This document shows, in pieces, positions 39,701 through 41,179 of a stretch of DNA of 64,000 nucleotides. The translations under genes and the position numbers were made by a program. The stretch is from positions 620,001 to 684,000 of the forward strand of contig OX597841.1 of NCBI GenBank assembly GCA_951406725.2, in the 5' to 3' direction. Below the pieces are notes generated by a model. It was not told where the DNA came from. It saw only the letters and a list, made by a program, of their open reading frames with translations, and ran no database searches. Origin of the DNA: Octopus vulgaris. Its lineage: Eukaryota. The stretch's first letter is position 1, and the number at the start of each line of letters is the position of its first letter.

Positions 39701-41179
39701 TGTGTGTGTGTGTGTGTGTGTGTGTGTGTGTATATATACATATACACACACAGATGTTATTGATTCCTTGCAGTCAAAGAAATGATGAGTTAAATGTGGA
39801 CTGGACATTAGACTAACAGCCATCAATAAATTTTATTTTTCTGTGTCATTTTTTGGGGGGGAGGGAGTGGGCGGGATAGTATGTGTGCGTGCGTGCGCGA
39901 GCGCGTGTCTGTTATATGTTTGCTTTTATCTTTCAGGTGAAACTGGTGATTTATAAAAACCAAACATCTGTTGTGACTATGATTTTTGATGGACGAAATG
40001 CAAACCTTGAAAGTTGGTTCTCTCATGCAAATTTGAAAAGCTCTCCATGGGATGACCTATCTTCAGCCAACCCAGAGCATTTCAGGATGGAAGGAATAAA
40101 GTAAATTCTAAATATACTTTTCTTTTTCTCTTTGTAGAAACGTAATATACCAAAAGCACTTTACGCACGTTACTATATATATATATATATATATATATAT
40201 ATATATATATATATCCGTTTCTTAACACTATATATTTATTCACGATATTTTCTTGAAACGACCAAAGCATTTCCAGGCTTTCACCATTATATCTTCATTG
40301 AATATGATTATTATGCTATACATTTTAACACAGGTTGATATAACCATCTATTTATCAAGCGTAACGCATCGATAGGCCAGTTACTGCAATATATGTCCTG
40401 AGATAACATCTATTGCTCTCATTAGCCGCTGCTGGGACGAATTTTTCGTGTCTCTCTGATATTTATTGTGTTCGTAACACTGCAAATCCATAGGAGATGT
40501 TATCTCAGGGAAAATACTACAGTAACTAGCAATCGACAGTGTGTATATATATTGAGTATGATACATAGATGTCTGTTTTAATCAAATGCTGATTTATTCT
40601 ATTGTGCACATCGGACATAATTGTATATTTACTGAATACTTATATTTTCTCATTCTGAAACCCAAACAAGTTCTTTTTTCAGTTCAGCAGTGATATACGT
40701 CGCTTCTATATAACGAACCACGCTGACTGTCTCACAGAGCGTGGGTGGTTGTGCATCAATGGAGGTTCCGCTTATTGTCAGTATGATAACATGGATCACT
40801 ACCCTTCAATTCGTTATTCTGATACAAAATCGAAAGTCGTATGGAACAACGGTAAGTGATGTTTTGTGTATGTGTTGATGTGCATATGTGTGTGAGTGTC
40901 CCTGTGTGTGTGTGTGTTTGTGGATGTGTGTATCTCTGTTTGTGTGTTAATGTGAGTAGCAAATGAAATAATTTTTGTATTTATTGTACAACAATCAATT
41001 AGTCTTAATTCAGTTGTGGAAATTTGGCTGCTTTTTCTAGTAATTCGAGCGACCACGTATAAAGGCTTTCCATGGCATATTTTTAATTCCTTTCGTTGTT
41101 GATATTTTTATTGTTACTTGCAGGTTATGCATTGGCAGACTCCATGGCCATATTCATCAGCCTGAGGCAGCAGAACTAA
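33444..41179 (+). CDS. Paralogue C: intact spliced gene, 295 aa secreted protein (signal peptide + PAN/apple-like module + uncharacterised Trp/Cys-rich domain)
   Basis: Exons 33444-33771, 35466-35644, 39937-40100, 40691-40851, 41124-41179 total 888 nt; all GT/AG; open through ...[18 protein letters not shown]. Confidence 0.88.
35177..35372 (+). mobile_element. tRNA-derived SINE, second family (also 47155-47365 -, 47860-48070 +, 57778-57998 -)
   Basis: Head GGCGGCGAGCTGG..AATCGTTAGC and GAGTTCAAAT box; absent at the matching site of copy A. Confidence 0.75.
35466..35644 (+). CDS. Paralogue C coding exon 2
   Basis: tttc[19 protein letters not shown]...[29 protein letters not shown]. Confidence 0.88.
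39937..40100 (+). CDS. Paralogue C coding exon 3
   Basis: tttc[11 protein letters not shown]...FDGR...ESWFS...LKSSPWDDL; donor AA|GTAAAT. Confidence 0.88.
40691..40851 (+). CDS. Paralogue C coding exon 4
   Basis: [53 protein letters not shown]; 161 nt as in B and D; donor G|GTAAGT. Confidence 0.85.
41124..41179 (+). CDS. Paralogue C coding exon 5
   Basis: ttgcAG|; [21 protein letters not shown]; candidate AATAAA at 41279-41284. Confidence 0.82.

Follow-up and report, generated by a model that had tools for sequence, protein, structure and literature searches.

A hypervariable exon 3 patch in a segment-exchanging tandem family of predicted secreted octopus proteins

A tandem gene family and its products

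The window analysed here, a 64-kb stretch of Octopus vulgaris DNA, holds five copies of one tandem-family gene, with A, B and D on the minus strand and C and E on the plus strand (Table 1). Each protein of the family consists of a predicted signal peptide, a PAN/apple domain and a further domain of ~185 residues. Copy C has an intact frame of 296 codons distributed over five exons. Exons 4-5 of copy A and the remainder of copy E fall beyond the window, and the DNA-level comparisons reported below cover three full and two partial copies. Two of the five copies, A and B, are damaged. Copy A has probably lost normal splicing of exon 3, judging from its ctg acceptor, and is likely non-functional. 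Copy B carries an in-frame TAA at codon 108 (28873-28880, minus strand); its O. sinensis counterpart, P0037, is 96% identical across the last 199 residues of B. In copy D an ATA occupies the usual position of the start codon, with an in-frame ATG 11 codons further on, and its exons 1, 3, 4 and 5 match O. vulgaris P0055 at 100% identity. Exons 1-2 of copy E are 99% identical to O. sinensis P0038.

Table 1. Location of the gene copies and of the divergent tract, in positions of the 64-kb window
Feature	Position	Strand	Remarks
Copy A exon 3	274..437	-	164 nt; patch at 274-308; acceptor ctg (438-440), cag in C
Copy A exon 2	13244..13422	-	Arg in place of a family-conserved Cys
Copy A exon 1	16265..16592	-	
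Copy B, five exons	23056..29200	-	28873-29200, 28271-28449, 25843-26003, 24329-24489, 23056-23105
Copy C exon 1	33444..33771	+	predicted signal peptide and PAN/apple domain
Copy C exon 2	35466..35644	+	
Copy C exon 3	39937..40100	+	164 nt
Hypervariable patch	40066..40100	+	residues 213-224 of copy C (11 residues and a split codon), immediately downstream of the conserved SSPWxDL motif
Copy C intron 3 start	40101..40134	+	non-coding extension of the A/C divergence peak (7/33 and one indel)
Copy C exon 4	40688..40851	+	loops vary between the fixed anchors RRFY, C, GW, C, P, YS and W
Copy C exon 5	41124..41179	+	ends at stop
Copy D, five exons	46789..56103	-	55770-56103, 52246-52424, 50976-51139, 48654-48814, 46789-46838
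Copy E exons 1-2	62842..63941	+	62842-63172, 63763-63941

Several minor features of the non-coding sequence were recorded. A retroelement of ~6.6 kb, presumably Penelope-like, occupies intron 2 of copy A (2198-8823); it contains a 776-aa ORF with an RVT_1 domain (4383-6710, minus strand), a second open frame of 480 codons, a pair of 584-nt inverted repeats (99.8%) and a direct repeat of 222 nt, and it looks recently inserted. By eye, a segment of copy B intron 2 (~26740-27760, minus strand) resembles a decayed mariner-type transposase, and B has ~1.8 kb of extra upstream sequence relative to A. Copy D has an (AAT)n-type repeat of roughly 900 nt in intron 3 (49860-50780) and a 403-nt inverted repeat pair (94.5%) in intron 4 (47092-48132). 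The donor of copy C reads gtaaat and those of A and B gtatgt. Exon 4 of copy C has tandem in-frame acceptors at 40688-40691, with cag 3 nt apart, the alternative use of which would add or remove one residue directly after the patch.

With the closest full-length paralogue as query, 51 proteins were retrieved: 23 from O. sinensis, 14 from O. bimaculoides, 11 from O. vulgaris, 2 from Argonauta and 1 other, P0054 and P0060 being counted as Octopus on similarity. Most lie on one contig in each species (14 of 23 in O. sinensis, 10 of 14 in O. bimaculoides and all 11 in O. vulgaris), and nearly all are named uncharacterised or hypothetical. Searches of main texts in the open-access literature returned no description of this octopus family and none for six O. 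bimaculoides locus identifiers. The family is apparently undescribed, and the evolutionary pattern that it displays is itself already known. For tandem arrays, mis-annotation can make chimeras of database gene models.

The assignment of the first domain is structural. In an AlphaFold2 model of the paralogue P0005 (70% identical to C; mean pLDDT 85.8), residues 13-113 match the HGF N domain (3hms_A) with Z 9.3 and rmsd 2.4 over 79 aligned residues, and the top 18 structural rows for this region are mostly PAN-type. The Pfam PAN profiles stay below their curated cut-off (the best Octopus score is 17 bits to PAN_3, against 21.1), copy C exon 1 has no Pfam match, and the domain holds only two cysteines in this family. 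Four exon peptides from the window, compared with Pfam, gave nothing but one weak defensin row (E 0.11).

The C-terminal domain of ~185 residues has no Pfam match, and searches of PDB sequences found no relative. It does have 704 relatives at E<=0.001 in a representative library, in which it is often fused to C-type lectin, F5/8, SUEL, TSP1, EGF, sushi, ZP or VWD modules. In five homologues (P0084, P0086, P0096, P0104 and P0151) a fibrinogen-type N-terminal motif directly precedes it. The first four of these are long proteins that carry TIG, FG-GAP or MopE repeats and whose domain content looks bacterial; in them, tandem copies of the domain follow the fibrinogen-type motif. The fifth, coral P0151, aligns to P0005 with an E value of 6e-24, and a model of its corresponding region best matches human intelectin-1 (Z 6.8 and rmsd 4.4 A over 161 aligned residues); other fibrinogen-related domains (FReDs) come next, together with TLDc domains, which also score Z 4-5. 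Foldseek ranks intelectins and ficolins first for the same region, with E values of 0.012 or worse and TM ~0.33-0.34. All these scores are below the tools' confidence levels. Among the matches listed, FReD-family members occupy seven of the 11 best VIA rows and all but one of 37 Foldseek rows. For the C-terminal domain of the Octopus model itself, the scores for intelectin (Z 4.7) and ANGPTL3 (Z 4.6) are below the tools' confidence levels. The copper oxidases that head the Foldseek rows for the two-domain model (rmsd >11 A) were discarded as PAN-driven noise.

FReD lectins (intelectins, ficolins, tachylectin 5A and FIBCD1) are thus the top, although weak, structural matches. Unlike them, the Octopus proteins lack the N-terminal fibrinogen motif, with no Fibrinogen_C Pfam match in any of 10 octopod proteins, and their partner domain is PAN/apple. 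A search for canonical FReD sequences yielded just seven relatives, all from corals. On these models the C-terminal domain is likely to be a distant FReD derivative without the first subdomain.

The exon 3 patch and variation across the family

An earlier note on this DNA had drawn attention to the end of exon 3, where the otherwise near-identical copies A and C diverge abruptly. Its hand counts are exact: the 21 differences between the two exons comprise six in the first 129 nt and 15 in the last 35 nt. So many differences in any 35-nt window occurred in 1 of 200,000 random placements within exon 3 and in none of 50,000 placements over the 671-nt A/C coding alignment, and six other A/C homologous blocks peak at 7 or fewer per 35 nt. 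The patch peptides are as previously read, with identical P, F, M and G codons in both copies; residues change at seven of 11 whole codons and at the split twelfth, which agrees with the eight of 12 given before. At least 2 of the 13 whole-codon changes are obligatorily synonymous, and two codons differ at all three bases.

The description of the following intron as again highly similar applies beyond a TA repeat (5 differences in 122) and fails at the intron start, where the first 35 nt contain an indel and 7 substitutions among 33 aligned bases, compared with 52 in 956 in other A/C intron stretches (p=0.002). The divergence peak therefore consists of 15/35 exonic and then 7/33 intronic differences over a background of 2-6%. 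The patch diverges more than the adjacent intron (15/35 versus 11/73, p=0.003). The intron start is pyrimidine-rich, and a faster local mutation rate of its own may explain part of its divergence.

To place the patch in the context of the family, column entropy was computed for 52 sequences (47 database proteins and the five window copies); segments with <70% coverage, or with <30% identity to C, were masked. Mean entropy is greatest in the patch (2.33 bits, against 0.89 in the 5' part of exon 3); exon 4 averages 1.87 and the remaining parts 0.9-1.2. Exon 4 had also been noted as very divergent around fixed anchors, as is borne out by differences of 31-40% among B, C and D, compared with 15-20% in exon 2. 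Mapped on the predicted structure, the variable sites cluster rather than scatter: of 31 sites with an entropy of >=2.5 bits, 29 fall within residues 208-278 and 21 have coil structure by DSSP of the P0005 model. The patch, in this model a coil and a short strand, falls within the most variable subdomain. Since loops in residues 208-278 average 2.18 bits and those in 110-207 only 0.87 (p=2e-7), the pattern reflects one variable subdomain and not general loop noise.

Two conserved cysteines of exon 4 are 16 residues apart, with variable loops around both and the patch just upstream. In FIBCD1, according to the cited part of its structural description, the ligand- and calcium-binding sites are placed around the C-terminal Cys401-Cys414 disulfide (PMC3908420). 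Order and spacing suggest that the variable loops of the octopus family, likewise arranged around two cysteines, could correspond to this ligand and calcium region; no conserved acidic calcium pair is evident in the variable region. A ligand-binding role for the domain is suggested by the weak fold match described above.

Near-identical tandem copies are hard to assemble, and the patch might in principle be an assembly or annotation artefact built from chimeric haplotypes. The exact C patch, together with its intron, is present in contigs of two public sequencing runs (X1 piece 7 and X3 piece 24, with no other letters), which makes an error of assembly unlikely, although either run could share a source with the assembly. 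Run X3 was guessed to be RNA, and as its pieces include intron and lack a splice joint they say nothing on expression. In X2 and X5, contigs depart from the C sequence at 40065 and return to it at 40131, the boundaries of the patch tract, and both runs carry the intron 2 variants of copy A. An artefact is accordingly a very improbable explanation.

These contigs define two sister haplotypes, one in X1/X2 and one in X5. Relative to C, seven exon changes are listed for them, each in a codon whose residue changes, and one intron change; an outcome of 7/7 non-synonymous has p=0.23 by chance. The X1/X2 haplotype differs at 8 positions in a 91-base piece, and the seven that are listed all fall within 40075-40105; as read here, they amount to E>Q, H>Y, R>T and I>L together with an altered split codon. 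A Fisher value for this haplotype (H1; 8/31 versus 0/60) was set aside, as it is forced by the geometry of contig bubbles. In X1 the haplotype piece has a depth of 17 and the exact C piece 15.3, and X2 has no piece with the C base at 40078, which fits two alleles of one locus, although contigs cannot prove this.

Exchange between copies and probable selection on the patch

The copies are mosaics, and exchange of segments between them can be seen directly. Quartet-informative sites group A with B and C with D in exon 1 (8:1:0) and A with C and B with D in the 5' part of exon 3 (11:1:1; p=0.0004). Copies A and B share ~97% identity through exon 1 and ~1.3 kb of DNA upstream of it (16253-18337 against 28861-32674) and yet are 27% apart in exon 3, with exons 2-3 of B differing by 17-27% from A; the shared segment has the appearance of a recent conversion or crossover tract. 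Among the 18 of 52 sequences that were full-length enough for segment correlations and trees, distance correlations fall below all 300 column shuffles in five of six segment pairs. For the sixth, the 5' part of exon 3 against the patch plus exon 4, family-wide incongruence is not significant (17/300). Starred clades conflict between the exon 1 tree and the patch plus exon 4 tree; P0008, for example, groups with P0005, P0009 and P0010 in the former (100/100) and with P0011 in the latter (95/93).

Exchange extends to the patch. In O. sinensis P0002, 9 of 11 patch residues match those of C, as against only 34 of 43 residues upstream. P0002 is the closest of 51 exon-3 segments to the C patch, and none of these segments is identical to the patch of either A or C, which speaks against pure conversion from another paralogue in this set. 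Over 123 bases of patch and intron, a piece from run X5 has seven differences from C, and the changes listed give the residues of P0002. In the 5' part of the gene the silent divergence of C from B and D is 0.25; it climbs to 0.66 and 0.80 further 3', whereas that between B and D is level along the gene (0.27/0.28). Much of the divergence of C in exon 4 thus reflects older ancestry and not selection.

In a neutral mosaic the patch would be a tolerant surface loop, and the A/C difference an older tract left or missed by conversion or crossover, with no selection for diversity. This accommodates the rise of silent and intronic divergence in one ~70-nt tract, a patch dN/dS of ~1, the depth of the 3' half of C relative to its 5' half, and a C-like patch on a different background in P0002. 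A single event, however, cannot yield five related versions (A, C, P0005 and the two sister haplotypes), and neutrality does not account for an exonic part that outpaces the adjacent intron, for the far lower variability of the other loops of the protein, or for B-D variable sites that exceed the silent rate. We consider this explanation unlikely.

The evidence for selection comes from several comparisons. Three genes with near-identical upstream parts of exon 3 (A, C and P0005) carry three different patches, with 2-3 of 43 upstream residues differing as against 5-7 of 11 in the patch. Over 12 disjoint close pairs, from which the redundant P0001, P0004 and P0006 and the insertion-bearing P0048 were excluded, 26 of 132 patch residues differ compared with 22 of 516 upstream, a contrast that is inflated because pairs were chosen by upstream similarity. 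At variable sites chosen beforehand from 41 other proteins, dN/dS between B and D is 2.4 (p=0.006), a value from one pair, by a counting method, with silent sites taken from same-residue codons. By Nei-Gojobori counting the A/C patch has a dN/dS of 1.00 and no region-wide pairwise value exceeds 1; the A/C variable sites do not differ significantly from the adjacent intron (p=0.07-0.13). As copy A is likely non-functional, its patch may now drift.

Positive selection on point mutations alone, following the A/C duplication and with no part played by exchange at the patch, would agree with a dN/dS of ~6.8 at the A/C variable sites when set against gene-wide silent divergence (p=0.001), with 0 silent differences in the 9 codons of unchanged residue at 208-223, and with the lack of an identical patch donor among the 51 exon-3 segments. 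It leaves unexplained why divergence is also raised over the first 34 bases of the intron, why two codons change at all three positions and why nearest relatives switch exon by exon; P0002 and X5 piece 32 point to a patch and intron start on a different upstream background. We regard it as quite improbable.

The earlier note had offered diversifying selection or patchwise conversion. Both find support, in mosaics on the one hand and residue replacement on the other, as processes acting together and not as alternatives, although the A/C patch itself has a dN/dS of ~1.0. Both processes seem to act, and diversifying selection on the patch surface is likely on this sequence evidence. We therefore favour, with moderate confidence, a reading in which the patch is the most variable loop of the family and probably part of a ligand-binding surface kept different by diversifying selection, within a segment-exchanging tandem family of predicted secreted PAN/apple plus fibrinogen/intelectin-like proteins. 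Crossover or gene conversion would keep the flanks alike and carry patch and exon-4 modules among genes; selection would reject exchanges that erase the patch and favour new residues; and the outcome would be a narrow divergence peak that lifts nearby silent sites too. Damaged copies such as A and B would act as sequence donors. The proteins are predicted to be soluble, lectin-like pattern-recognition molecules, with specificities that would differ between copies or alleles, in which the variable subdomain may bind glycans or proteins, most plausibly microbial.

Relation to known recognition families

Intelectins, the best fold matches, bind microbial glycans in a calcium-dependent manner. Among molluscs, a close parallel in mode of evolution is with the FREPs of Biomphalaria, described in the cited portion of PMC7588048 as multigene secreted lectins with an IgSF and a fibrinogen domain, diversified by gene conversion and point mutation; the same portion mentions that some molluscs combine PAN/apple with FReDs. 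The octopus family evolves like the FREPs, but with an N-terminal PAN/apple domain in place of IgSF it is not a FREP. FREP diversification is, moreover, somatic, and the octopus variation is seen between germline copies and haplotypes.

A narrow divergence peak between converting paralogues is, in the pages cited from PMC3924837, the signature of selection under conversion, as in exon 5 of the red and green opsins; pseudogenes are there given as donors in MHC and plant R-gene clusters (PMC3924837). Of the features expected of a selection-maintained peak, exchange between paralogues and a local peak that includes linked non-coding sites are seen here, and dN/dS is 1.0 for the A/C patch and 2.4 at the pre-chosen B-D sites. 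As far as those pages describe them, the opsin, MHC and R-gene systems and the octopus family have in common the narrow peak, the many copies and the damaged copies in the cluster, an evolutionary pattern of textbook kind. The octopus case is one of sequence, and ongoing homogenisation of its flanks is presumed.

The same selection might serve a non-immune role, such as gamete or self recognition, a mucus, adhesive or egg-coat matrix, or a salivary secretion. By language-model features, and not by alignment to USOMP5, the nearest Atlas cluster of the domain is a USOMP5-like coral domain ('Skeletal organic matrix protein 5', score 0.89), which serves as a lead only; the excerpt cited on USOMP5 places it in the coral skeleton and uses it as an expression label in regeneration only (PMC12019164). 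Homologues combine the domain with ZP, VWD, TSP1, sushi and EGF modules, and also with lectin domains. The C-type lectin, F5/8 and SUEL neighbours, on the other hand, and best fold matches that are innate lectins favour recognition of microbes, and tandem expansion with damaged copies fits recognition families as characterized in the cited pages of PMC3924837. A non-immune role, which overlaps with the reading favoured above, seems possible but rather doubtful.

If selection on the surface holds, the family is a candidate for the diversification of microbe or self recognition in octopus without antibodies, and the variable sites would point to the functional surface of a widespread extracellular domain, with 704 relatives, for which there is neither a Pfam model nor a closely related solved structure. 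A bolder proposal, which we make only tentatively and hold to be less than probable, is that of an octopus-specific, germline-diversified recognition repertoire: a cluster of 10-20 or more secreted proteins that share a truncated intelectin-like domain which has gone unrecognised, with binding loops reshuffled among genes, pseudogenes and alleles as in MHC and plant R-gene clusters, such that individuals would differ in specificity at single loci. Five versions of one 12-residue loop are already known, and specificity is directly testable by swapping them.
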